The position numbers and the translations under genes are program-made. The notes beneath the pieces are model-generated. The model did no database searches, had not been told where the DNA came from, and worked only from the letters and a program-made list of their open reading frames with translations. Below, one piece after another: positions 653 through 31,907 of a stretch of DNA of 32,000 bases. The DNA is from Methanopyrus kandleri AV19 (GTDB lineage: Archaea > JAADCQ01 > Methanopyri > Methanopyrales > Methanopyraceae): NCBI RefSeq assembly GCF_000007185.1, contig NC_003551.1, positions 720,001 through 752,000 of the forward strand, written 5' to 3'. Within the stretch, counting starts at the first letter, position 1, and each line of letters begins with the position of its first letter.

Positions 653-730
653 GGGCCGGCAGCTCAGTCTGGCTAGAGCGCGGGACTTTTAATCCCGTGG
701 TCCCGGGTTCAAATCCCGGCCGGCCCACCA
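653..730 (+). tRNA. tRNA-Lys (anticodon UUU) with genomically encoded 3' CCA and C at position 8
   Basis: Cloverleaf folded by hand. Acceptor GGGCCGG/CCGGCCC; D stem GCTC/GAGC; anticodon stem CGGGA/TCCCG with loop CTTTTAA; T stem CCGGG/CCCGG with loop TTCAAAT; discriminator A, then CCA. No intron. Confidence 0.95.
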
Positions 731-12206: not shown

Positions 12207-14036
12207 TTGATTTTTAAAAAGAGAAAAGGTGGTAAGCGTGAACGGCCCGAGATAGATCTCAAGCTTAAACCTCCGGAGGAAGGTGAGGGAGCTCCGAAGC
12301 TCAAGCTCCCCAAGCCGGAGGGGAGGCCCGGCGAGTCGAAAGGCGCAGAGGCCGTCCCCAAATTAAAGCTTAAACCCCCGAAACCTAGTGAAAAACCTCC
12401 TAGTGGAGAAGAGGAGGAAAAGAAGAAAGAAGAGCGCCCACCGGCTGAAATTAAGCCTCCTAAGCCACCGGAAGAGCGTACCGCTCCCTCGAATTTGGAA
12501 GCTGAACTAGAGCGGCTGAAAGCCGAGAATAAAAAGCTTAGAGAAGAATTAGACGAATGGCGCAACAAAGCCAAGAGTGCGATGGGAGAGAGGGATAGAC
12601 TAAGGTCCGAAATTAAAAGACTTAAGGAAGAACTTGAGAAGCAAGAGAAGGAACTTGATAAGTACATCAAAATTTCGAAGCAACTGAAAGAAAAGTTAGA
12701 AAAAGCTAAAAGAGAATCGGAGGAACTTAAAGAAAAAGCGGAAGAGTACCGTGAACGGTACGAAAAGATTGCTGGGAAATACAATGAGCTTAAGTCGAAG
12801 CTGGAGGATCTCTCGGACCAAAATCGTCGTCTCGCAGAGAATCTAAAGAAACTCAAAGAGAAGTATAATGAAATTAAGGAGGAGAGAGATAGGCTAAAGG
12901 AAGAAACGAAAGAAGTGGGGAAACTCAAGGACCAGTTAGCTAAGCTTCAAAGTAAACTTAAGGAGGTTAAAAGCGAAAGAGACGACCTCGCCAACGAAGT
13001 CGAAGCCCTGAGGAATGAGAACGAAAAACTTAGGAAGAAAATAGACAAACTGAAGTCTGAGCTGAGTAATCTCCAGAAGAAGCTCAAAGATAGGGAGAAG
13101 AAATTGGAAAAGGCTCGCCAGCATATCGGGAAGCTCAGGGAGGAAATTAAGAGAAGGGATGAGGAGATTAGGAAGCTTAGGAAGGCACAAAGTAAGTTGA
13201 AGGATGAAATTAAAAGGTATGAGGAAGGGAAGCGACTTCTGGTTCCACCCGAGACTGAAATGGCGATAGCAAAGGTGAAGGGTAGTATTGTAATAGGAAA
13301 GAATTCAATGGTTAAGGCACTCCAAGAGGATGAGCCCATAGTAGTTAAGGAGGAAATTAATGTCAAAGATAATTCGCGAATTTACGGGACGATTGTGGCT
13401 AAAAACATCTCAATTGGGAGTAATGTAAAGATTTACGGGAATGTAATTTGTGAAAACAAGTTGGAAATCGGAGAAGGCTCTACGGTAAAAGGCCATGTAA
13501 TTTCTATTAATTCACTGAAGACGAGTGCGGATGTGATAATAGAAGGGAGTATGGTCAGCGGAGACGACATCTCGCTCGCTAACAACGTGGAGGTCAAGGA
13601 GGTTCTGATCACGCCAGGGTCGGTCAAGGCCAGTCAAGGCCTCAGCGTTGCGGCGGTGCTGTGTAATGACTTCGAATCAGCCGGTTCCATAGAGGCGGAT
13701 TATATTCTAGCGGATGAGAGGGTCAAGCTGGGTGACGACAGCTTCGTCAAGACGGTGATCGTTCGAGAGGGACCGGTGGAGCAAGGAGTGAACTCATGCG
13801 TCTACTACGGCTCGTTGTCCATCAAGGGTCGGAACCCGAAGCTCTACATAAACACCGAACCGTTCGACGATCCCGTCGCTAACAGGGTATTCCGCAAGAC
13901 GATTTCCAACGTGGAGCGCCTCGGGCCGTTTCATCTAGCGAAGTCGGAGAAAGACGCTAAGTTCGTGTTGAACAGGGTCACCAAGATGGACATCGCGGAG
14001 ATCGTGAAGGAACTGCGAGAATCTCTGAAGGTCTAA
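12207..14036 (+). CDS. 609-aa protein: Lys/Pro-repeat N-terminus, long coiled coil, and a bactofilin-like beta-helix C-terminal region
   Basis: TTG start with GGGGAGG 6 nt upstream. Residues ~17-60 carry PKLKL(K)P(P)KP repeats. Residues ~95-340 are an uninterrupted heptad-like K/E/L-rich sequence (LEAELERLKAENKKLREELDEW...). Residues ~350-530 have a repeating pattern, SRIYGTIVAKNISIGSNVKIYGNVICENKLEIGEGSTVKGHVIS...IIEGSMVSGDDISLANNVEVK, typical of bactofilin/DUF583-type beta-helices. Confidence 0.8.
   Translation: MIFKKRKGGKRERPEIDLKLKPPEEGEGAPKLKLPKPEGRPGESKGAEAVPKLKLKPPKPSEKPPSGEEEEKKKEERPPAEIKPPKPPEERTAPSNLEAELERLKAENKKLREELDEWRNKAKSAMGERDRLRSEIKRLKEELEKQEKELDKYIKISKQLKEKLEKAKRESEELKEKAEEYRERYEKIAGKYNELKSKLEDLSDQNRRLAENLKKLKEKYNEIKEERDRLKEETKEVGKLKDQLAKLQSKLKEVKSERDDLANEVEALRNENEKLRKKIDKLKSELSNLQKKLKDREKKLEKARQHIGKLREEIKRRDEEIRKLRKAQSKLKDEIKRYEEGKRLLVPPETEMAIAKVKGSIVIGKNSMVKALQEDEPIVVKEEINVKDNSRIYGTIVAKNISIGSNVKIYGNVICENKLEIGEGSTVKGHVISINSLKTSADVIIEGSMVSGDDISLANNVEVKEVLITPGSVKASQGLSVAAVLCNDFESAGSIEADYILADERVKLGDDSFVKTVIVREGPVEQGVNSCVYYGSLSIKGRNPKLYINTEPFDDPVANRVFRKTISNVERLGPFHLAKSEKDAKFVLNRVTKMDIAEIVKELRESLKV
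12255..12390 (+). repeat. Three imperfect coding repeats (aagct[tc]aa[ag]c... encoding PKLKLKPPKP-like units)
   Basis: Units lie at about 12259-12280 (LKLKPPEE), 12295-12321 (PKLKLPKPEG) and 12355-12386 (PKLKLKPPKPSE). Confidence 0.6.
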
Positions 14037-15535: not shown

Positions 15536-16510
15536 TCAGAACTCCCTCTCTACAACGAAATCCGCCAACTTTTCTAGGAACTCCCGATGCTCGTTCTCGG
15601 GGAGCTCGCGCAGCGCAGCCTTAGCGCGATCGGCGTACTCTCGGGCCCGCTTTTTAGCGTAATCTATCGCACCGAGATCTTCGAGTATCTGAATAACCTC
15701 GCGAACGTCCTCGCGTGAAGCATCCTCGTTCCCGAGGACCGAAAGTATGCGCTCCCGCTGCTCCTCATCGGCGAGCTCCAGGCCCTTGATCACGATCAGC
15801 GTCTTCTTCCCCTCGACGATGTCGCTGCCCACGGGCTTACCGAGTTCGGACTCGTCTCCGACAAGGTCGAGGACGTCGTCCTGTATCTGGAACGCGATCC
15901 CCAAGTTCTCGCCGTACTCCCGAAGCGCTTCCAGTTGCTCGCGGTTCGCCCCGGCTTTAAGCCCGCCTACGACGCACGATGTCCGTATGAGCGCTGCCGT
16001 TTTCTTCCGGATCATTTCGAGGAACTCATCCTCGGTGACTTCAGTCCTGTTCTCGAACCCGATGTCCATGGCTTGGCCCTCACAGATCTCCGTGCAGGCG
16101 CGGGCGAGTTCTTTCACTGCCTCTACGTCTCCGCCTTCCGCCGCCACTTCGAAGGCTTTGGAGAACAGGGTGTCTCCCGCCAGTATGGCTACCGGTACTC
16201 CCCACTTCACGTGTACCGCCGGGACTCCGCGTCGTTCGTCGTCTTCGTCCATGATGTCGTCGTGAATTAGAGTGAACGTATGAATCAGCTCGACCGCGAC
16301 CGCTTCAGGGAGTACGTCCTCTTCCGATCCACCTAACATGAGACACGATTTGATGGCGAGGAGGGGTCGGATTCGCTTACCTCCCGCTTCGATTAGGTGC
16401 CAACACGCATCGTAGAGGTCCTCTGGGCCTCCTCTGGGTAGTACCTCCTCAATCTTGGCGTCGACGAGCTCGCGTGCACGGTTCAGCTCTTTCAGTATCT
16501 CACTCCGCAT
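15536..16510 (-). CDS. idsA: Short-chain (E)-isoprenyl diphosphate synthase (geranylgeranyl diphosphate synthase)
   Basis: 324 aa with the first Asp-rich motif LIHDDIMDEDDERRG and the second IAFQIQDDVLD. Confidence 0.9.
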   Translation of the reverse strand: MRSEILKELNRARELVDAKIEEVLPRGGPEDLYDACWHLIEAGGKRIRPLLAIKSCLMLGGSEEDVLPEAVAVELIHTFTLIHDDIMDEDDERRGVPAVHVKWGVPVAILAGDTLFSKAFEVAAEGGDVEAVKELARACTEICEGQAMDIGFENRTEVTEDEFLEMIRKKTAALIRTSCVVGGLKAGANREQLEALREYGENLGIAFQIQDDVLDLVGDESELGKPVGSDIVEGKKTLIVIKGLELADEEQRERILSVLGNEDASREDVREVIQILEDLGAIDYAKKRAREYADRAKAALRELPENEHREFLEKLADFVVEREF

Positions 16511-16522
16511 GGAATCGTCCCC

Positions 16523-17884
16523 TTATAACGGCAGACTTAGCTTCGTGCCGTCGAACATTATGAATACGTCTCGGTTCACCTCGTAACCCTCCTGAGTGGC
16601 CAGTTCGGCGTACGCGGCCAGCATATCCGGGTCACCGTGTGCCGGGACGATGAACTCCGGCTGGAGCATTCTGAGCATTAGGCGATGGTCTTCACGACCC
16701 GCGTGCCCTGACACGTGCACGTCCTTGAACATTTTCACACCCTTCAGCCGGAGCTTGGTGTCCAACACGTAGCGGTTGGCTCGATTTATAGGGGACGGAA
16801 TTGTGGACGACGAGAACACTACGCTATCTTCTTCGGTCAGTCGGTACGGGAGCTCGCCGTCAACGATCCGCGGTAACACGGCGCCCGGCTCTCCCTGGTG
16901 TCCCGTGACGATCAGTAGGTAATCCTCCTTCTCCTTGTTCGCCCGTTCGAGTCCCCGCCGAATAGTCTCGGGGCGATCGTAAATCCTGGCACCCGCGGGG
17001 AGGTTCAGGAGACCGAGCTCTTCGGCGATCCTCCCGTATTTGCCCATGGATCTTCCGGCGAGGATCACTTTCCTGCCTAATCTGTCCGCAGTGTCTGCGA
17101 TCGCCTGTATCCGTTCTATGTGTGACGAGAACGTTGTAACGATAATCCCCTCACTTTCCTCGTCGGCGAATCTGAGCACGTCGTTTACCATTTCCCTAGC
17201 TACAGATTCGGAAGGTGTCTTAATTTCTTCAGCGACCCTCAAACTCTCAGTAATGAGCAGTAACACACCTTCTTTGCCCAGCTGTTTGAGCCTTTTATAA
17301 TCCGGTTTGTATCCTATTATTTGATTATCATCGAACTTAAAATCGCACGCATATACTATTGCTCCGTAGGGAGTATGCAACACTGGTAGGACACAGCACG
17401 GTATGCTGTGGCTTATAGGGATAAATTCAAGTCGGAGTTTCGAGGAGATCTGCACTTCGTCTCCAGGCTCGACTGTGTACAAGTTAATCATGATATCTTC
17501 GGCTTCATCTGCGTACCTTATCTCATTCCTGAGGTCGGCTTTCACGAGTTCTATTGTGAACTCAGTTCCGAATACCGGGCACTTGTACTTAAAGAGCAGC
17601 TTAGGTACCGCTCCGATGTGGTCTAAGTGAGCGTGGGACAGGACCGCGGCGACCGTCTTGGAACGATGGGGGCGTAAGATAGGGTCGTTCGGTATCGCTT
17701 TCACTCTACGGAGTTCCCTGGCTGAGGCTTTCTGAAAATCTTTTTCGAAAACTAGTGATTTGTCCAGGGACATACCACAGTCGAAGATCACTATCTCCTC
17801 GTCCACGCGGACCGCGGTCATGTTTCGTCCACCGGCCTCGCCGTATCCCCCTACTGCGAACACCTCGACGGTCAACGGTTCCAC
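16523..17884 (-). CDS. rnj: Archaeal RNase J (metallo-beta-lactamase/beta-CASP 5'-3' exoribonuclease)
   Basis: 453 aa: FAVGGYGEAGGRNMTAVRV, MBL motif LSHAHLDHIG, and beta-CASP C-terminal motifs VSGHAGREDH and VPAHGD. An alternative TTG start at 17875 would give a TTGA overlap with the IDI2 stop. Confidence 0.85.
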   Translation of the reverse strand: MEPLTVEVFAVGGYGEAGGRNMTAVRVDEEIVIFDCGMSLDKSLVFEKDFQKASARELRRVKAIPNDPILRPHRSKTVAAVLSHAHLDHIGAVPKLLFKYKCPVFGTEFTIELVKADLRNEIRYADEAEDIMINLYTVEPGDEVQISSKLRLEFIPISHSIPCCVLPVLHTPYGAIVYACDFKFDDNQIIGYKPDYKRLKQLGKEGVLLLITESLRVAEEIKTPSESVAREMVNDVLRFADEESEGIIVTTFSSHIERIQAIADTADRLGRKVILAGRSMGKYGRIAEELGLLNLPAGARIYDRPETIRRGLERANKEKEDYLLIVTGHQGEPGAVLPRIVDGELPYRLTEEDSVVFSSSTIPSPINRANRYVLDTKLRLKGVKMFKDVHVSGHAGREDHRLMLRMLQPEFIVPAHGDPDMLAAYAELATQEGYEVNRDVFIMFDGTKLSLPL

Positions 17885-18969
17885 CCCGTTCGGCGATCAC
17901 CGGTGCAGACGAGATCGAGTGGGACTCCCCGGCACTCCAACCACTCACGCAGCTTCCCGTACACTACTATGGGGACGCTGCTCATTTCCTCCACGGACGA
18001 ACACCCCGCCATCAACATCGCGATCTTGACCTCGCGAGCGATCGACTTCAGGAAGCGGACGCAGCCTCTGACGCCCTCGGCCAGCACTTTACGGAGCACT
18101 GGTAAGGCCATTCCGGCGCAGTCCGCACCTAGAGCCAGAACCTTCGCGACGTCCATTCCCGTGCGCACGCCTCCGGTTCCAATTATCGCGAGATCGTTAC
18201 CGACGACGCTTCTGACTTCGAGTATTGAAGCCGCTGTGGGGACTCCCCAATCGGAGAACGCGTAGCCGAGTGGTATCTCACCGTGGGCCTTCGACCGGAC
18301 GGCTTCGACCACCGCCCAGTTGGTTCCACCGGCTCCACCGACGTCGATACCGTCCACGATATCCCGGACCAACTTGGCGTCTTCGGCTGACACGCCGGCT
18401 CCGGTCTCCTTCAAGACCACCGGCACGTCCACCGTTTCGCAGACTTCGGCGAGTACGTCCACGAACCCGGCGGCGTCCGCCTCACCTTCCAACTGAACCG
18501 CTTCCTGCAGCACGTTCACGTGAACGGCCAGCGCGTCTGCGTCCACCATATCGACGACTTCGAGCGCGAGGTCTGGGCCGTTCTCGCGCAGCTGCGGGAG
18601 CCCGATGTTGGCCAGCACCAGGCCGTCGGGGTACTCCTCCCGTACCACCTCGAACGTCCACCGCACCTCCGGATCCTTCACGCCGGCTCGCTGGCTTCCG
18701 ACCCCTATACCTATCTCAAGCTCGCGGGCTACTCGGGCGAGCTTCCGGTTGATCTCGCCGGTTTTAGGATGGCCTCCCGTCATTCCGGCGATTATCAGCG
18801 GGAAGGAGAGCCGCTTCCCGAAGAGTTCGATTTCCATGTCCACGTCGTCGAAGTCGAGCTCCGGGAGCGCCCGATGTACTATCTTCACGCAGTCGAACAG
18901 CGGGCTTTCCTCCGATTCGACGTCCTCCCAAATACACGCTAGCACGTGTTCCCACTTCCGTTCTCTCAT
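17872..18969 (-). CDS. fni: Type 2 isopentenyl-diphosphate delta-isomerase (FMN-dependent)
   Basis: Starts at ATG 18969 (MRERKWEHV...), 4 nt after the IPK stop. Motifs: FPLIIAGMTGG, GVGSQRAG, VVLKETGAGVS, IDVGGAGGTNWAVVE, IIGTGGVRTGMDVAKVLALGAD. Confidence 0.9.
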   Translation of the reverse strand: MRERKWEHVLACIWEDVESEESPLFDCVKIVHRALPELDFDDVDMEIELFGKRLSFPLIIAGMTGGHPKTGEINRKLARVARELEIGIGVGSQRAGVKDPEVRWTFEVVREEYPDGLVLANIGLPQLRENGPDLALEVVDMVDADALAVHVNVLQEAVQLEGEADAAGFVDVLAEVCETVDVPVVLKETGAGVSAEDAKLVRDIVDGIDVGGAGGTNWAVVEAVRSKAHGEIPLGYAFSDWGVPTAASILEVRSVVGNDLAIIGTGGVRTGMDVAKVLALGADCAGMALPVLRKVLAEGVRGCVRFLKSIAREVKIAMLMAGCSSVEEMSSVPIVVYGKLREWLECRGVPLDLVCTGDRRTGWNR

Positions 18970-18973
18970 CCCT

Positions 18974-19693
18974 TCAGCGCGTGATCCTCGTACCAACGTG
19001 CTCACCCCGAAGGAATCGGTCGACGTTTTCCGGATCCCGAGCATCGAACATGTACACTTCCGCGCCGCGCTCCGCTATGCGTGCGGCCCTTCGCAGTTTC
19101 TCCGCGATGCCCCCCGTCACATCTACGCCGGCAGAACCCTCCAGCTGCCGTGCCAAGTCTCGCGCTTCATCCGGAGAGAGCTCCCTTAAGGGCTCCCCCT
19201 CCTCCGGTGTTCTCGGGTAAACTCCGTCGACGCTCATCCCGAAACCGACCCGGTCCGGGCCCAGCCAGGAGACCCGCTCGGCGATTTCGTCGCCCGACAT
19301 GATCCTAAACCCGTCCCCGTCGTGGTCCGGGACGACGTCACCGTAGAGTAGGGGAACGCAACCACGTTCCAACAGGTCCACTAACACGTTGAGCGAGTAC
19401 AGTACCGTCGCGGGTGTCACCGGGTACACGCGCACTCCCGAGTCCACTGCCACCTTCTCGACGATAGAAAGTAGCTCGTGCATCGCCCGTCGAACCTCCG
19501 AAACACCCTTTTGCAGGTCGCTTACTCTCGACGCCGCGTAGTGCCCGAACGACCCGCCGCCGTGGATGAGTACTAAATCTCCCCTCCAGTCTGAGATGAC
19601 TTTCATAAGTCTTCGAATACGGTCTTCCCTGGCCGTTTTCGGTTTCGATTTGTCGGTGATCACACTCCCTCCGAGCTTCAGAACCGTGAACAC
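18974..19693 (-). CDS. Isopentenyl phosphate kinase (archaeal mevalonate pathway)
   Basis: 239 aa from the amino-acid kinase family: VLKLGGSVITDK, LIHGGGSFGHYAA (conserved His), MSGDEI, DVTGG. Sits in the ipk-fni-idsA context. Confidence 0.85.
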   Translation of the reverse strand: MFTVLKLGGSVITDKSKPKTAREDRIRRLMKVISDWRGDLVLIHGGGSFGHYAASRVSDLQKGVSEVRRAMHELLSIVEKVAVDSGVRVYPVTPATVLYSLNVLVDLLERGCVPLLYGDVVPDHDGDGFRIMSGDEIAERVSWLGPDRVGFGMSVDGVYPRTPEEGEPLRELSPDEARDLARQLEGSAGVDVTGGIAEKLRRAARIAERGAEVYMFDARDPENVDRFLRGEHVGTRITR

Positions 19694-24972: not shown

Positions 24973-25683
24973 ATGATGTCGATCAAAATGACGATCGGAG
25001 CCACCGGAGCCGCTGAGGCGGCTTCGCACGGGGACGTGATCGTGGTAGTGGACGTCGTGAACACTTCCTCTGCGGCTGAGGTCGCCTTACGCGAAGGGGC
25101 TGTCGCCGTAGTAGGGGCGGCTCCCGATAGTGCTTATCGGGTCCTCTCGGGTGAGCACGCGGCTAAATACCCGTTCGCGGAGACACCCGAAGGCGTTGAC
25201 CCGGTAGAGCGAGGCCGGGAAGCTGGTAAGATAGCCGTGGAAGAGGGCTGCGATGTAGTACTCGTGGTAGACGGCGGCGAAGATAACGCGAGTTTGGCTA
25301 GGAAAGGCGTTGAGGACGTCGGGGCGGAAATCCGGGAGGTCGTACCTAACGCGGGCCCTAGGATTAAGGACGTGGTGGATCCGGCGGGTAAGGTCTTCTT
25401 GTTCGCCACGGCTACGGGCGGAACGCTCTACGATGTCGCTAAGACTCACGGGGCTCCGGCGGTAACGTTCGGAACCGTCGTGCGTCGCTCTTTCACCAGG
25501 GCGTGTGTGGAGAGAGCACTGAGGTTAGCCGGCAGGTATGGGGCGGGCGTCACGATAGTGGTTTCATCGATCTTCGCCCCGGAAGACTTAGACGCCGGCG
25601 CGAGGATTTTCGAGGAGGCCTGTAAGGTCATCACGGAAAGCGTCTGTGAAGAACGGTTCGAGGACGTCGTTTCGAGACTGTAG
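24973..25683 (+). CDS. Possible 2-phosphosulfolactate phosphatase (ComB)-like protein
   Basis: 236 aa. DVIVVVDVVNTSSAAEVALREGAVAVVG resembles the ComB N-terminal VIDVLRASST..AL..GA motif. FATATGGTLYD and VSSIFAPEDLDAGARI resemble the TTTNGT and EDxxCAG regions. Divergent, so the call is tentative. GGAGGG lies 7 nt upstream of the ATG. Confidence 0.4.
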   Translation: MMSIKMTIGATGAAEAASHGDVIVVVDVVNTSSAAEVALREGAVAVVGAAPDSAYRVLSGEHAAKYPFAETPEGVDPVERGREAGKIAVEEGCDVVLVVDGGEDNASLARKGVEDVGAEIREVVPNAGPRIKDVVDPAGKVFLFATATGGTLYDVAKTHGAPAVTFGTVVRRSFTRACVERALRLAGRYGAGVTIVVSSIFAPEDLDAGARIFEEACKVITESVCEERFEDVVSRL

Positions 25684-26904: not shown

Positions 26905-27300
26905 CTACTCCTTCGGTACTATACGGAACTTACAGATATCGTCGCCCGCCAGCTGGCACTTCGTCTCCTCTATCTCCATGCTCTTATCGTACTTCAGCTC
27001 CGCTAGCTTGCGGAATAAGGCCTGCTCCAACTCACAAGCGGGCTCGGTGAATCCCATTTCCTCCTTAACCTCGGGGTTCTCCTCGTAGAATTCCACCGTA
27101 ACCGTCGTTTCTACGGTGATGACTATTTCTTCCGGGTCCTCCTTATCACCCACGAAGTCAACCTTTATCCCCTCCATGCCCATATCCTCGAGCAACTCCA
27201 GCATCTCTTCGAGGGAGTCCGCGCGCTCGTAGACGATTTCCGCGAGGAGCTCTCCCTTCTCTCCCGCTCCCTCCTCAAGGTCTTTTATCAGCTCATCCAA
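26905..27300 (-). CDS. Small V4R-domain protein (predicted small-molecule-binding)
   Basis: The C-terminus, ACELEQALFRKLAELKYDKSMEIEETKCQLAGDDICKFRIV, matches the V4R ending (E.kC...Gd..C.F.i). The track ORF runs to 27393, antisense through the conserved N-terminus of the mptD-like gene, so I prefer TTG 27300 (MDELIKDLEEG...). Confidence 0.5.
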   Translation of the reverse strand: MDELIKDLEEGAGEKGELLAEIVYERADSLEEMLELLEDMGMEGIKVDFVGDKEDPEEIVITVETTVTVEFYEENPEVKEEMGFTEPACELEQALFRKLAELKYDKSMEIEETKCQLAGDDICKFRIVPKE

Positions 27301-27311
27301 GGGGGAGACCC
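27301..27311. promoter_or_regulatory. G-run/C-run palindrome filling the 15-bp V4R/mptD divergent spacer
   Basis: ggggagacccc: GGGGGAG lies 9 nt upstream of TTG 27316 on the plus strand, and the minus strand reads GGGGTCTCCCC immediately upstream of TTG 27300. Confidence 0.4.
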
Positions 27312-27315
27312 CGAC

Positions 27316-27681
27316 TTGAAGTATTTCAAGAGGTTGTCCGATCGGGAGCGCGCGATATTCGAGGCTGGAATCACGCTGGGCGCTATATATCATCAGTTCT
27401 GCGGCACGCCTGTATCACCCGGCACCGCGGAGGAGGTGGCCAAGTGTATCGAACGTGCTGCCCTACTTCAGCCCTGCGTAATCGATGCTCGGGTGGAGGT
27501 GGACGTATCATCCGAGGATACCGACAACTACGGTGGGTACACGGAGGTTTCAGGCCGGAACCTACGAGTTACGATTGTAACTAGGTGCGGGGAGTGGGAG
27601 GCCGTAGGGAAGCTCGAGTTCATCGAGGAGCTGAACTACCCACTTATGTGGGTTGAGGAGATCCGGCGGGTGGAACAGTGA
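27316..27681 (+). CDS. mptD: MptD-like archaeal dihydroneopterin aldolase family protein (methanopterin biosynthesis)
   Basis: 121 aa. RERAIFEAGITLGAIYHQFCGTPVSP and the overall length match my memory of the MJ0408/MptD family. Not verified by alignment. Confidence 0.55.
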   Translation: MKYFKRLSDRERAIFEAGITLGAIYHQFCGTPVSPGTAEEVAKCIERAALLQPCVIDARVEVDVSSEDTDNYGGYTEVSGRNLRVTIVTRCGEWEAVGKLEFIEELNYPLMWVEEIRRVEQ

Positions 27682-28961
27682 CCGTTATCGGGATAGCCGC
27701 CGACTTCGATCCACCCCACCGGGGACACGCTTACCTATTAGACCGTGCCCGAGACCTCGGTGACGAAGTCGTGGTGTTCCTCAACGCTGATTACACCGCG
27801 CACCATACCCCACCTCTCCTACCGTACCGCTTACGTCGCGAGATAGTGTTAGAGCTCGGCGCAGACGAGGTGATACCAGTCCGGGGGTACCACCAGCGAT
27901 TTCCACTTGCCTACACGGTCCCCGTGCGAGTCAGACTCATGGCGGAGGAGGGCGTGGATGTTATCCTCGACGCTGGACCGTCGCGAAACCTCGATCGGCT
28001 CCGTGAGCACGTCGAGAGGGTGTTGGAGGTAAGTGACCTCTTCTCCATTCCTCCGAACGTTCCGGCCCGTAATGTGGTCCGATGGTTGGCGGCCGTCGAG
28101 TACGTGAACCGAGAGCTGGGAACGGACGTCGAGCTACTCCTTATTCCGGAGCTCGAAGGGTATTCCGGTCGCAAGATCAGAGCCGCGCTCCGGCGCTCCG
28201 GCTATTCACCCGATTCGCTCAGAAAAGTCAGGCGTCACTTGCCCCGGGAAACGTTCAAAAAACTTGAACGATACCTCAAGGCGCGGACACCACCGATAGC
28301 CCGGCGAAAGGAGCTCCTCGACGTCTTGAACCGCGCGTCGAGCTACGAGCTCTGTAGCATCGCACACCTCAACACCATCGCCGTTCGGGAGATCCTCAGA
28401 GGGCGTCCATTCAGATCGGAGCGTCAGGTTTGGGGGGCACTCCGCAGAGCCGACTACGGTTCGGTGCTCACGCGGCTCGCATTGGCGAACACCGAGTGTC
28501 GCGTAACCTCGGACGAGATCGCTCGGATCGCTCTAAGCTGGTGTGTCGAGCGTCTTGTCCCGGAGAACCAATCTCCCGACTCGATGTACCGGCGCGATTG
28601 GTTCGTGGCGGCTCTTTCCAGCCATGGGGTTAAGGCCCGCGATGCGGATCGACTGTACAAGCGAGCCGATTCCTACGAAGAGGCTCGTCGACTGGCTCGT
28701 AGACGTTACGGCGTCGATCCCGGAGTCCCGCGGTTCGAGACCCTCATAGGTGAAGCTAGGGTTTCGGACGGAGAATATCGTCCGGCTATATCGGCCAACG
28801 GCCGACTGGGGGTTGTCGAGGACGGGTTTCAGGAACTGCGCGCGACGGCATTCGGAGCCACGTTGCTCAGGTACGTCCTGGACGACCCCTTCGTGGACGC
28901 CGTGATTCGGGTGGAAGACGAGGAGGCCAGACTGATCGTTTTCCCGGGGGACTCGCCGTGA
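27678..28961 (+). CDS. HxGH nucleotidyltransferase-fold protein of the COG1323 / TmcAL (YlbM)-like family
   Basis: 427 aa. The N-terminus VIGIAADFDPPHRGHAYLLDRARDLGDEVVVFLNADYTAHHTPPLLPYRLRREIVLELGADEVIPV parallels TmcAL (G..EYNPFHNGH...VMSGNFvQRGEP...R...AL..GaDLViELP). SGRKIRAAL parallels SATSIR. The GTG start overlaps the mptD stop (GTGA). Confidence 0.55.
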   Translation: MTVIGIAADFDPPHRGHAYLLDRARDLGDEVVVFLNADYTAHHTPPLLPYRLRREIVLELGADEVIPVRGYHQRFPLAYTVPVRVRLMAEEGVDVILDAGPSRNLDRLREHVERVLEVSDLFSIPPNVPARNVVRWLAAVEYVNRELGTDVELLLIPELEGYSGRKIRAALRRSGYSPDSLRKVRRHLPRETFKKLERYLKARTPPIARRKELLDVLNRASSYELCSIAHLNTIAVREILRGRPFRSERQVWGALRRADYGSVLTRLALANTECRVTSDEIARIALSWCVERLVPENQSPDSMYRRDWFVAALSSHGVKARDADRLYKRADSYEEARRLARRRYGVDPGVPRFETLIGEARVSDGEYRPAISANGRLGVVEDGFQELRATAFGATLLRYVLDDPFVDAVIRVEDEEARLIVFPGDSP

Positions 28962-30166
28962 GGAGGATTTGGTTCCACTTGGACTCAAAGAATAGGTACA
29001 GCCTGGCACACGTGCTCGGGGCCGTAGAGGCCCGTGCCCCCGAGCTAATACCGTACATCGAGGTCTCCAGGAACCCGGATCCGGAGCCCGGGGACATCGT
29101 GGTGTTCTCGTTCAACACGTTCATGGCTCCCGAGGTCTTCGAGGTGGTGGAACGTCTCCATGATGACGTGGTGAAACTGGCGGGTGGTCCCCACCCATCG
29201 GCCCGACCGGACCAGTGCCTCGAGCACGGGTTCGACATCGTCCTGATCGGGGAGGGGGAGGAAGTAGTCCCGGAGGTACTCCGTGAACTCATTCGTGGTA
29301 AGGAACCTGAAGAACGCCCCGGCGTTTACTTGGGTGAGGGGAATCCTCAACCAGCCCCGCGGGTGGAGGATCTCGACCGCTTTCCGCCGTACTCCGAGGG
29401 TTTTCGCATATTCTGTTCCGTCGAAATCACCCGAGGATGCCCTTGGGGTTGTGCCTTCTGTCAAGTCACCAGACTCTTCGGGCCGAAGCTGCGGCATCGG
29501 TCCGTGGAGGACGTGGTCCGATGGGTCAGGAGAGGGGTCGAGCGGTACGGTCACACCTTCGCTCGCTTCGTCGCTCCGGATGCTCTGGCATACGGGTCAC
29601 CCGACGGTATCCGGCTGAAGCCGGACCGAGTGAAGCGTCTCCTCCGATCACTCCGCTCGATTGAGGGGTTAGAAAAGGTGTTTTTCGGTAGCTTTCCGGC
29701 GGAACTCAGACCCGACTCCATCGCCAAAGGGGATGCCATTGAACTGATCGCTCACTATGCGGACAACGAGCGTGTCAACATCGGAGCACAGTCCGGGAGC
29801 GAACGCGTACTCAAGAGGATTGAGCGAGGGCATACCGTGGAGGACGTCGAAGTGGCCGTAGAGAAGGCGCTGGAAGTAGGTCTGAAACCTGTGGTCGATT
29901 TCATCTTCGGGTTGCCCGGGGAGACGGAGGAGGACCAGTTAGCGTCAGTAGAACTCGCCCGGTGGATAATCAAGCGGGGTGGTGAGGTCAGACTCCACTA
30001 CTTCATGCCACTGCCCGGAACACCGCTGGAGAACGAGGAGCCAGCACCGCTCTCGTCCAAGATCCGGCGTATACTCGGACGGTGGACTCAAGAAGGTAAG
30101 GCGGAAGGCGCGTGGGGACACCAGATGAGGCTCTCCAAGACCGCGATGAAAGTCCTGAGCGGGTAA
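28958..30166 (+). CDS. Radical SAM protein with an N-terminal B12-binding-like domain
   Basis: 402 aa. CxxxCxxC cluster motif CPWGCAFC at 29438-29461. Upstream Rossmann-like DIVVFSF...GGPHPS...DIVLIGEGEE, typical of B12-binding-domain radical SAM proteins. Downstream GAQSGSERVLKRIERGHT and DFIFGLPGETEED. Confidence 0.85.
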   Translation: MRRIWFHLDSKNRYSLAHVLGAVEARAPELIPYIEVSRNPDPEPGDIVVFSFNTFMAPEVFEVVERLHDDVVKLAGGPHPSARPDQCLEHGFDIVLIGEGEEVVPEVLRELIRGKEPEERPGVYLGEGNPQPAPRVEDLDRFPPYSEGFRIFCSVEITRGCPWGCAFCQVTRLFGPKLRHRSVEDVVRWVRRGVERYGHTFARFVAPDALAYGSPDGIRLKPDRVKRLLRSLRSIEGLEKVFFGSFPAELRPDSIAKGDAIELIAHYADNERVNIGAQSGSERVLKRIERGHTVEDVEVAVEKALEVGLKPVVDFIFGLPGETEEDQLASVELARWIIKRGGEVRLHYFMPLPGTPLENEEPAPLSSKIRRILGRWTQEGKAEGAWGHQMRLSKTAMKVLSG

Positions 30167-30972
30167 TGGAATTGGAGGTCCTCGTGCTAAGCCCGGCCGC
30201 ATTGTACAGACGTACTGTGAAAGCACTTCGAGATCTGACCGGCTTCGCCCGGGAGGTGGTGGGACTCGAGGAGTTCGGTGTAGGTATAGTAGAAAACCCG
30301 CGTGAATACGTTCGGTGGTTAGCCAAACGAGTTGATGAGGGGACGGCTGAGGACGCTCTTCTCACGCTGGTCGGAGGGTCGGGAGCGCTCGTCGTACGCG
30401 TTGGCGGTGATACGTATCACGTGCTGATAGGTCCCGCTTACCGGTCTGAGGAATCCGTGAAAGCCGCACTGGCGCACGAGCTGGCCCACCTACTGCAGCA
30501 TCGATTGAAGCTGTTCCCCAAGGATGTACCCAGACCGGCAGGAGCTGTCAGGTCCGTGCTGCTACCACTCGAAGTGGGTGCCGAAGAGCTCGTGCTCAGA
30601 GAGCTCCCGGAAATAGGTGAGGTGAGGATCAGGATGGCCCAGGAGGAGGCGCGGGAGTGGCGTCGGACGGGCGACCCGATACTGGACCTCGAGAACGCGC
30701 TCGTCGCCGTCCCGATAAGGCTAGCCGCTCGACGTCTCGGACTCGACACCTCCGTGCAGGAACCCTCGATCGAGGATCCGGAGCTGAGGGAGGTGAAAGA
30801 AGAGCTGGTGAAACTGGCCCGAGGTGTCGACCCGTGGGACCAGTCGGACGTGGAACGTTATACCCGCAAGTCCGTGTCGATACTCCTGGATTGGCTGCTG
30901 GATCAGGATCGGCACCACTCGACGAGCGACTCGAACAACCGTAAACCGTCATCGGAGTTCAGGAGACGGTGA
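30166..30972 (+). CDS. Hypothetical protein with an HExxH zinc-metallohydrolase motif
   Basis: Starts at ATG 30166, overlapping the radical SAM stop (TAATG). HELAH lies at 30475-30489 in the context KAALAHELAHLLQH. The last ~23 codons overlap the 3' end of purQ on the opposite strand. Confidence 0.55.
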   Translation: MELEVLVLSPAALYRRTVKALRDLTGFAREVVGLEEFGVGIVENPREYVRWLAKRVDEGTAEDALLTLVGGSGALVVRVGGDTYHVLIGPAYRSEESVKAALAHELAHLLQHRLKLFPKDVPRPAGAVRSVLLPLEVGAEELVLRELPEIGEVRIRMAQEEAREWRRTGDPILDLENALVAVPIRLAARRLGLDTSVQEPSIEDPELREVKEELVKLARGVDPWDQSDVERYTRKSVSILLDWLLDQDRHHSTSDSNNRKPSSEFRRR

Positions 30973-31583
30973 GCCGCGCGCTCAGGGTGAGGCATCATTC
31001 CGAGGACGTTCCCATCGTCGTTCACAACTCCCGTAATACCGCCGACGGAGCCGTTGAGGTTGTACTCCTCTGAGACGTCGCCGTCGGGTCCGCAGAACCT
31101 GAACACCACGTTGTCCTCGATCTCCTCCGGGTTTTCGTAGTAGTACCGTCCCTCCGCGTGGGCGATCGGAACTCGAATGACTTCGTCCTCCTGGTACTTG
31201 GTCGTGAACGGGGTGTCAGTACGTTCCACGCGTAAGTAGACCCAATCGCAGATGAACCTGTTCCCGACGTTGACCGTGAGAGTACCCGGGATGAGCTCCG
31301 CTTCGGCTAGTATCTGCATTCCGTTACACACTCCCAGCACGGGGCGCCCGTCCTCTGCACACTCTCGAATCTCCTCCAAAATCGGGGATAGCGCGGCGAT
31401 GGCGCCCGCCCGGATGTAATCCCCGTAAGTGAATCCGCCCGGGATGATCACGGCGTCGAAGTCGTCTAACCCACCATCTTCGTGCCAGACGAACTCCGGA
31501 TCTCCACCAGCGAGCTTCACGGCCCATGCCATCTCGAGGTCGCAGTTCGTGCCGGGAAACCTGATGACAGCCACACGGACCAA
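30903..31583 (-). CDS. purQ: Phosphoribosylformylglycinamidine synthase, glutamine amidotransferase subunit
   Basis: 226 aa: VAVIRFPGTNCD, catalytic GVCNGMQIL, MPHPER. TTG start. Confidence 0.9.
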   Translation of the reverse strand: MVRVAVIRFPGTNCDLEMAWAVKLAGGDPEFVWHEDGGLDDFDAVIIPGGFTYGDYIRAGAIAALSPILEEIRECAEDGRPVLGVCNGMQILAEAELIPGTLTVNVGNRFICDWVYLRVERTDTPFTTKYQEDEVIRVPIAHAEGRYYYENPEEIEDNVVFRFCGPDGDVSEEYNLNGSVGGITGVVNDDGNVLGMMPHPERAAHRLLNSDDGLRLFESLVEWCRS

Positions 31584-31652: not shown

Positions 31653-31907
31653 TCACTCGACGACCTCGATCTCGTAGTCTTCGACGACTGGATTTGCAAG
31701 AAGTCTCCGACACATCTCATCGACGAGCTCTACGGCCTCTTCTTCGTCGTTGATGTCGAGCTCGATCCTGTAGATCTTGGCCGTCCGAACGTCTTCCACC
31801 TCCTCGTATCCCAGTCGGTGTAACGCCCTCTTCACAGTCTCACCTTCGGGGTCCAATGCCTTCGGTTTCAAGCTCACGCGAACCTCGACGGTGACCAACT
31901 GTGTCAC
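31653..31907 (-). CDS. purS: Phosphoribosylformylglycinamidine synthase subunit PurS
   Basis: 84 aa: VEVRVSLKPKALDPEGETVKRALHRLGY...VRTAKIYRIEL..., the PurS pattern. Lies directly upstream of purQ. Confidence 0.85.
   Translation of the reverse strand: MTQLVTVEVRVSLKPKALDPEGETVKRALHRLGYEEVEDVRTAKIYRIELDINDEEEAVELVDEMCRRLLANPVVEDYEIEVVE

Follow-up and report, generated by a model that had tools for sequence, protein, structure and literature searches.

MJ0408 of Methanocaldococcus jannaschii, the protein characterised as MptD, is a 7,8-dihydroneopterin aldolase. A second described system is the tRNA-Met cytidine acetate ligase TmcAL, known as YlbM in Bacillus subtilis and also from Thermotoga maritima (PDB 5Y0N-5Y0T); MJ0951, a further reference in what follows, is designated UPF0348. 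The third is MgmA (QCMT), the B12-dependent radical S-adenosylmethionine (SAM) enzyme serving as glutamine C-alpha-methyltransferase of methyl-coenzyme M reductase (MCR) (PMC9401015, PMC11796369). Methylation of unactivated carbon centres has been described for class-B B12 radical SAM enzymes (PMC13469106). In Methanopyrus kandleri AV19, relatives of these proteins are encoded side by side with an orphan HExxH protein, in four chained plus-strand open reading frames (ORF1 to ORF4). They lie within the 32,000-nucleotide stretch of contig NC_003551.1 that was analysed (positions 720,001 to 752,000; hereafter the window). We read these genes as a lineage-specific, co-transcribed string of separate functions rather than one pathway, juxtaposed only in Methanopyri, and put the probability of this reading at about 0.55. 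What is new here is members of known families together with one orphan HExxH family.

An initial annotation had described the string as a translationally coupled operon, probably with a shared function. The four chained ORFs and their three junctions agree exactly with the ORF list and the sequence, and the positions of the HRGH, CPWGCAFC and HELAH motifs agree exactly by residue arithmetic (Table 1). Family matches and conserved homologues identify all four as genuine genes. The shared function fared less well, as set out below.

Family assignment of the four genes

ORF1 matches PF04038 over the entire model (residues 8-114 against positions 1-108 of 108; 123 bits, cut-off 25, E 1e-35), and its designation as MptD-like thus passes a hidden Markov model (HMM) search. 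It is 100% identical over 121 residues to PDB 2IEC, which was deposited as an uncharacterised conserved archaeal protein. It also matches MJ0408 (2OGF) over residues 2-116 (E 3.7e-25) and 2I52 (E 3.7e-17). On these matches ORF1 is assigned as an MptD-type 7,8-dihydroneopterin aldolase of the pterin/methanopterin branch. As the MptD of this organism, it would cleave 7,8-dihydroneopterin to 6-hydroxymethyl-7,8-dihydropterin for methanopterin.

ORF2 contains PF01467 (44.5 bits, cut-off 21) and PF16581 (31.9 bits, cut-off 26.7); the match to PF05636 is limited to residues 1-66 (model 1-68 of 402). Its closest solved relative by sequence is MJ0951 (3GMI), with E 2e-5 from the single sequence and 2.3e-8 from a family profile (positions 9-291). 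The label TmcAL/COG1323-like given to it at first holds at the level of fold and superfamily. Foldseek searches with an AlphaFold2 (AF2) model of moderate quality (predicted local distance difference test, pLDDT, 76) retrieved the TmcAL structures of T. maritima and B. subtilis with E 1e-10 to 1e-7 and 3GMI with E 1e-9, over ~315-340 columns. For TmcAL 5Y0T the values were E 1.2e-10, 329 columns and a template modelling (TM) score of about 0.48-0.50. All other Foldseek matches span the Rossmann core alone. However, ORF2 is nearer to MJ0951 by sequence and fails the TmcAL equivalog models (NF010191, 29 bits for a cut-off of 360; NF010192, 26 bits for a cut-off of 238), and its identification as a true TmcAL was rejected on these scores.

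The family alignment of ORF2 shows three invariant motifs, DFDPxHxGH, NADYTAHH and SGRxIR, and H14, G16 and H17 are invariant in the 8 family members. A strongly basic character (net charge +21, isoelectric point (pI) 10.8) marks the central helical domain. It is basic in 8/8 members (net +6 to +21), and nearly all other enzymes of the window have a pI of 4.3-6. From this composition, the domain is likely to bind a polyanion such as RNA. The C-terminal beta domain is located outside the TmcAL/MJ0951 structural matches, carries a conserved T395..RY..D402 motif and is specific to a Methanopyri/Methanofastidiosia subfamily. ORF2 homologues were found only in these two groups, using a single-sequence scan of genome contigs and an alignment-based metagenome scan; a word-based protein search returned Methanopyri only. 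Sequence and model together assign ORF2 to the MJ0951/TmcAL superfamily of HIGH-motif nucleotidyltransferases or adenylate-forming enzymes. It would bind ATP through HRGH and SGRxIR. By analogy with TmcAL, it would then most likely form an acyl-adenylate or transfer a nucleotidyl group, the acceptor being a substrate that the basic domain holds, most plausibly RNA.

The call of a B12-domain radical SAM enzyme for ORF3 holds, and can be narrowed to TIGR04013, which is matched over its full length (490.5 bits, cut-off 251; residues 4-386 against model 1-382 of 382). PF04055 scores 101 bits and PF02310 35.2 bits (cut-off 32.1). The TIGR04014 (MgmA/QCMT) score of 123.3 bits does not reach the cut-off of 360, which rules out MgmA itself; the nearest solved chain is 9CCB (E 1.6e-25). 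In the N-terminal Rossmann domain, GEGE is invariant along with AGGPHP. C161, C165 and C168 are invariant in 13 sequences. Because no cysteine outside the CxxxCxxC motif is conserved, ORF3 should lack an auxiliary cluster, and a methylthiotransferase is ruled out. By sequence and analogy, ORF3 would be of class-B type, combining one [4Fe-4S] site with a Rossmann domain of cobalamin type, and would most likely methylate an unactivated carbon.

The TIGR04013 model takes its name from MJ_1487 of M. jannaschii, and the family was found in Methanopyri, Methanosarcinales, Methanothrix and bacterial contigs. The sole mention of MJ1487/TIGR04013 function found in the literature is a computational one. 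In MjCyc, MJ1487 was assigned to a BzaE-like step of anaerobic dimethylbenzimidazole synthesis with 29% identity, and MJ0865 to a BzaD-like step, the identities of both assignments being 24-29% (PMC11742838). The family of MJ0865, TIGR04014, is now experimentally supported as MCR glutamine C-methyltransferase, and for this reason the MjCyc assignments look unreliable. The BzaE-like role was not adopted for MJ1487/TIGR04013, the identity being only 29% and the NCBIfam class that of a hypothetical equivalog.

For ORF4, the HExxH motif noted initially is indeed the recognisable feature, to which an invariant downstream Glu cluster can be added. H104, E105, H108, E136, E140 and E141 are invariant in 9 family sequences, three distant ones included, and H112, the possible third His, lacks such conservation. 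ORF4 matched no family in Pfam or NCBIfam. Sub-threshold zincin HMM matches centre on the HExxH helix in five of the six family members scanned (best E 0.003). The AF2 model is confident (pLDDT 87.8, predicted TM score 0.86). No significant match was found in the PDB, either by fold (best Foldseek E 0.25; TM 0.27 to archaemetzincin) or by sequence. The seven close relatives from a word-based protein search are all from Methanopyri, and only three distant ones emerged when 1.84 billion representatives were searched exhaustively with a profile. About 10 members are thus known, from Methanopyri and one other archaeal lineage. The N-terminal VxVLxP strand, conserved in distant homologues, and the AF2 strand 4-9 both support a start of ORF4 at 30166 or at TTG 30172, the latter being the one given in the public annotation (P0001). 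From its conserved residues, ORF4 would be a small zinc-hydrolase-like protein with His104, His108 and a downstream Glu as ligands and Glu105 as the catalytic residue.

Gene order in Methanopyri and in other lineages

All Methanopyri loci (L001-L004 and L014-L016) share the order TrpB-V4R-ORF1-ORF2-ORF3-ORF4. These come from seven genomes or metagenome-assembled genomes (MAGs) of a single class, with identities down to 60% for ORF2 and 50% for ORF4. Outside Methanopyri, no co-localisation of the families was found in 7 ORF2 loci, 9 TIGR04013 loci and 3 ORF4-family loci. In M. jannaschii, the counterparts MJ0408, MJ0951 and MJ_1487 are dispersed, hundreds of genes apart by locus-tag numbering. 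The neighbourhood test therefore speaks against the shared function first proposed, as the four families do not occur together in any examined locus outside Methanopyri. Packing is favoured over partnership because the four genes sit together only in this lineage.

The string contains no intergenic space, and a custom scan located its sole plus-strand T5 run inside ORF3, with none at the gene boundaries. For these two reasons, co-transcription of ORF1 to ORF4 is likely. Overlapping genes are usual in this compact window. Of ~21 same-strand junctions in the 32 kb, 16 are at most 30 bp and 7 overlap. The overlaps include functionally unrelated pairs, such as IDI2 and RNase J (13 bp) or a NYN-domain protein and a methyltransferase (4 bp), as well as LeuD-like and isopropylmalate-dehydrogenase-like genes (4 bp). 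The start/stop overlaps thus mirror genome compaction as much as function, and in very compact archaeal genomes they should be treated with caution as poor evidence for a shared function. In the string they would reflect the extreme gene packing of the genome rather than a functional bond. The string would then co-express separate functions: MptD, an ATP-dependent ligase or nucleotidyltransferase with RNA as its probable target, a radical SAM C-methylase and a zinc hydrolase.

Several points weigh against this reading. The four genes are contiguous in each of seven independent Methanopyri genomes or MAGs, a pattern with which selection for co-expression would be consistent. Other groups are sparsely sampled, word- and pattern-based searches could miss divergent clusters, and the loci compared exclude Methanococcales, Methanobacteriales and Archaeoglobi. 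In addition, TIGR04013 is found beside an ATP enzyme of RNA-base-modifying type in two unrelated lineages (TtuA-like in one, TmcAL-like in the other). This recurrence hints that ORF2 and ORF3 may be a real pair.

ORF2 orthologues with 32-39% identity, the same motifs and the same C-terminal domain occur in seven Methanofastidiosia-type loci. There they are flanked by divergent and convergent NMD3-like, aIF2-beta-like and DUF167-like genes of housekeeping or translation type (read from translations, not by HMM). No match to dihydroneopterin aldolase, radical SAM or ORF4 was found near the orthologues in the seven loci. Methanofastidiosaceae have lost Mtr and the Wood-Ljungdahl/tetrahydromethanopterin (H4MPT) pathway (PMC9635834), and a methanopterin role for ORF2 is disfavoured because its orthologues occur in such organisms. 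This bears on one of the two functions proposed at first, methanopterin side-chain assembly or pterin methylation. In such a module the other three proteins would act downstream of MptD: ORF3 as the radical C-methylase for pterin C7 and/or C9, ORF2 activating a side-chain block and ORF4 processing an intermediate. ORF3 is indeed located two genes 3' of a true MptD, probably on the same transcript, and by analogy class-B chemistry is what C7/C9 methylation would call for. Moreover, MJ0619 had for a long time been given as the methylase of pterin C7/C9; Lloyd et al. demonstrated its identity as the tetraether synthase GDGT-MAS and were unable to reproduce pterin methylation (PMC9433317). The reassignment leaves the pterin-methylase activity orphan again, and the named TIGR04013 matches are mostly from H4MPT-using methanogens. 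However, no pterin or methanopterin gene adjoins TIGR04013 in the nine loci outside Methanopyri. The family is also present in bacterial contigs of Anaerolineae type, relatives of ORF4 are coupled to hisF, and the fold and charge of ORF2 are those of an RNA enzyme. The occurrence of ORF2 without the H4MPT pathway and of TIGR04013 in bacteria weakened the methanopterin proposal, which we now consider improbable. Equally improbable is a narrower version. In that version TIGR04013 would be the methanopterin C7 and/or C9 radical C-methylase, the mptD adjacency in Methanopyrus its sole surviving genomic trace, and the bacterial copies neofunctionalised transfers. Since TIGR04013 is common to several methanogen lineages and here lies beside mptD, it is nevertheless a pterin-methylase candidate that can be tested cheaply.

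The nine TIGR04013 loci belong to four other lineages, set apart by identity matrix, and show four other contexts; all score at least 445 bits. In the Methanosarcinia-type loci an adenine deaminase gene (TIGR01178, 634-650 bits) lies 5' of TIGR04013. It overlaps by 1-4 bp in L023, L025 and L030, is separated by ~70 bp in L008 and is nearby but not adjacent in L024. In all five adenine deaminase loci, the 3' end of TIGR04013 is overlapped by an unannotated ORF of ~112 aa that runs convergently and gives no family match; the three make up a recurrent trio. In a Methanolobus locus (L007), UbiD and AcnX genes are found 5' of TIGR04013. In two further loci (L010, 6079-8257; L026, 5079-7257), a TtuA-like PP-loop enzyme is encoded directly upstream with a 1-nt gap. 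Their contigs look bacterial (GGDEF response regulator, cellulase, PA14), and P0081 is labelled Anaerolineae by NCBI. The TIGR04013 members of this type have 418-483 aa, and the family is therefore not confined to methanogens. The fourth context, in the archaeal locus L027, includes RtcA, an MJ1316-domain protein, NOG1, Translin and EndoV.

These contexts, together with the properties of ORF2, bear on the other function initially proposed, a tRNA or rRNA modification. ORF2 and ORF3, possibly with ORF4, would form such a module and MptD would be an unrelated 5' passenger. ORF2 would activate a group and attach it to RNA, or mark a site on it, and ORF3 would C-methylate the base or the group. 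The TmcAL/MJ0951 fold of ORF2 over ~330 residues fits this proposal, as does a helical domain that is basic in every family member amid an otherwise acidic proteome. So do the position of Anaerolineae-type TIGR04013 directly 3' of a homologue of a TtuA-like tRNA sulfurtransferase and the RNA-related surroundings in L027, where RtcA, the MJ1316-domain protein, Translin and EndoV are all found. The presence of TIGR04013 in both archaea and bacteria would suit a universal substrate such as RNA. On the other hand, the Methanofastidiosia ORF2 orthologues have no radical SAM neighbour, Methanosarcinia-type TIGR04013 has neither an ORF2-like nor a PP-loop neighbour, and a long distance separates MJ0951 from MJ1487 on the M. 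jannaschii chromosome. An RNA-binding domain is not recognisable in ORF3, and MgmA, which is closest to it among characterised proteins, acts on a protein. The TtuA-like match (297 bits) is under the model cut-off of 450, and archaeal genes often have RNA-related neighbours by chance. The proposal thus gains modest indirect support for ORF2 and possibly ORF3, and none for the other members; such a module is possible, though unlikely. By itself, the ORF2 subfamily could reasonably be put forward as responsible for an RNA modification of hyperthermophilic methanogens that has yet to be described.

In the other lineage with ORF4 relatives, the reading frames of two distant homologues, P0136 and P0137, overlap a hisF at its stop codon and converge on an M48 peptidase gene; the hisF is a true one by score (378-390 bits, cut-off 294.55). 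The possibility that this PF00977 gene was the H4MPT-associated hisAF_rel (TIGR00734) was rejected, since it is an ordinary hisF. The same archaeal lineage also has OapABC, MreB/Salactin-like and NiFe-hydrogenase genes.

The zincin-type HExxH...E signature of ORF4 raises the question of whether a protein or peptide is the substrate of ORF3 and ORF4, with ORF2 providing ATP-dependent activation. Examples would be the maturation of MCR or of another methanogen enzyme, or a product resembling ribosomally synthesised and post-translationally modified peptides (RiPPs). Among characterised proteins, ORF3 is most closely related to the glutamine C-methyltransferase of MCR (TIGR04014, 123 bits; 9CCB, E 1.6e-25), and it also gives weak matches to RiPP radical SAM models. 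However, the MgmA cut-off of 360 is far above the 123 bits of ORF3, whose family is a different one. Anaerolineae-type bacteria also have TIGR04013, MCR is not known from this class, and no mcr gene is near in any locus read. The string leaves no intergenic space or small ORF for a precursor peptide, and the ORF4 family is absent from nearly all TIGR04013-bearing lineages. We consider a protein or peptide substrate for the pair improbable.

The mixture of a nucleotidyltransferase, a radical SAM enzyme and a metallopeptidase effector superficially resembles some anti-phage systems, and the string was also considered as a mobile or defence island. PADLOC returned only a weak generic radical SAM match (26 bits), the GC content is normal and matches that of the flanks, and the string is placed between trpB and purQ in all Methanopyri. 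Moreover, ORF1 is a core cofactor-biosynthesis enzyme. The defence or foreign island is effectively refuted by PADLOC, GC content and conserved chromosomal context.

Flanking genes and features of the window

The positions of the genes, domains and motifs are collected in Table 1. The TATA-like box upstream of ORF1 is the putative promoter of the string, inferred from its sequence and position.

Table 1. Features of the ORF1-ORF4 locus, with window positions, and related regions of other loci (locus handle before the positions).
Feature	Positions	Strand	Remarks
V4R-domain protein	26905-27300	-	divergent from ORF1; PF02830
TATA-like AT-rich box TCTTTTATCA	27281-27290	+	~26-35 nt 5' of ORF1 start; custom scan
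Shine-Dalgarno-like GGGGGAG run	27301-27307	+	read from sequence
ORF1	27316-27681	+	121 aa, TTG start
ORF1/ORF2 junction GTGA	27678-27681	+	read from sequence
ORF2	27678-28961	+	427 aa, GTG start
HRGH	27717-27728	+	ORF2 residues 14-17
NADYTAHH	27783-27806	+	ORF2 invariant motif
ORF2 central helical domain	28158-28712	+	residues 161-345; aligns with TmcAL/MJ0951 helical domain (Foldseek) and PF16581
SGRxIR (KMSKS-like position)	28164-28181	+	ORF2 invariant motif
ORF2 C-terminal beta-rich domain	28713-28958	+	residues ~346-427; strands 354-423, AF2 pLDDT ~87-95
ORF2/ORF3 junction GTGA	28958-28961	+	read from sequence
ORF3	28958-30166	+	402 aa, GTG start
B12-like domain	~29093-29278	+	ORF3
AGGPHP	29180-29197	+	ORF3, invariant, N-terminal Rossmann domain
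CxxxCxxC (CPWGCAFC)	29438-29461	+	ORF3 residues 161-168
ORF3/ORF4 junction TAATG	30164-30168	+	read from sequence
ORF4	30166-30972	+	268 aa from ATG 30166; longest form from GTG 30112
HELAH	30475-30489	+	ORF4 residues 104-108
E136/E140/E141	30571-30588	+	ORF4 invariant Glu cluster
purQ-like gene	30903-31583	-	convergent with ORF4, bounds the string; name read from translation, not HMM
purS-like ORF	31653-31907		name read from translation, not HMM
Adenine deaminase/TIGR04013 regions	L023 4283-7472; L025 4235-7499; L030 4159-7359; L008 5189-8478; L024 1662-7441		Methanosarcinia-type
hisF/ORF4-homologue regions	L012 6123-7639; L028 5192-6630		

Upstream of the string, the V4R gene had been placed 15 bp from ORF1 and proposed as its sensor or regulator. 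The gene is genuine, with a PF02830 match of 64 bits over residues 101-160 in a 162-aa form. However, the 15-bp gap depends on an ambiguous start, as it results from TTG 27300, and the longest ORF, from ATG 27393, would overlap the 5' end of ORF1 by 78 bp. A TATATAT stretch is found at 27383-27392 within this overlap zone. The encoded protein is strongly acidic (pI 4.1). No DNA-binding domain was detected in it with Pfam and NCBIfam models, the MsvR model aligning to the V4R part alone, without a helix-turn-helix. The adjacency to ORF1 is confined to Methanopyri. A regulatory role is therefore not supported. Further upstream, a 236-aa ORF (24973-25683, plus strand), 12 bp 5' of the trpB-like gene, has no Pfam match and is conserved at 73-78% in other Methanopyri loci.

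Downstream, the 3' ends of ORF4 and of the purQ-like gene overlap by 70 bp on opposite strands (30903-30972). Disorder is predicted for the last ~17 residues of ORF4, encoded in this overlap, and the homologues from other Methanopyri either stop short of this tail or differ in it; the tail may be a by-product of the purQ sequence. The purQ-like neighbour is kept in L001, L002 and L004 and is not adjacent in L016, where a 320-aa Cys-rich protein and another ORF are encoded between ORF4 and the purQ-like gene.

An RNA family scan found no RNA family or riboswitch in the string; the single Rfam match at gathering level in the window is a tRNA gene (653-727, plus strand, 67.9 bits). Elsewhere in the window, a minus-strand string (15536-19693) encodes an amino-acid-kinase-family protein (isopentenyl phosphate kinase-like), an FMN_dh protein (IDI2-like), RNase J (beta-CASP) and a polyprenyl synthetase. 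The IDI2/RNase J overlap mentioned above thus embeds an RNA nuclease in an isoprenoid cluster. A 609-aa protein (12207-14036, plus strand) is extremely rich in Lys and Glu (98 K, 91 E) and has repeated KLKLKPPKP-like segments in its N-terminal part.

Comparison with known systems

As a four-part pathway, the string is probably unimportant. Three of its four genes are nonetheless uncharacterised, and their resemblance to described proteins varies from one to the next. ORF1 and MptD/MJ0408 do not differ structurally, and both contain the GITLGA-x-HQF-x-GTPVS and QPCV segments.

ORF2 shares with TmcAL the HxGH ATP motif and a Rossmann-type catalytic domain followed by a helical domain, and with MJ0951 the PF01467 plus PF16581 architecture. 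Its basic helical domain is what would be expected of an RNA-binding partner domain, as in TmcAL. However, the sequence match to TmcAL models is limited to the first ~66 residues, and that to MJ0951 is weak (E 2e-8 by profile). Unlike both, ORF2 has an extra C-terminal beta domain of ~80 residues and the invariant NADYTAHH motif.

The likeness of ORF3 to MgmA/QCMT extends to the N-terminal cobalamin-type domain, the MiaB/RimO-like radical SAM core and the single CxxxCxxC motif. ORF3 nevertheless belongs to a distinct family, TIGR04013, a "hypothetical equivalog" in NCBIfam.

ORF4 shows no significant sequence or fold match to metallopeptidase families. Like the gluzincins and other zincins (DUF6782, Peptidase_M78/IrrE, SprT/WLM, M48), it has a HExxH helix that follows a small beta-sheet subdomain, and the invariant Glu cluster ~28-33 residues past HExxH is gluzincin-like.

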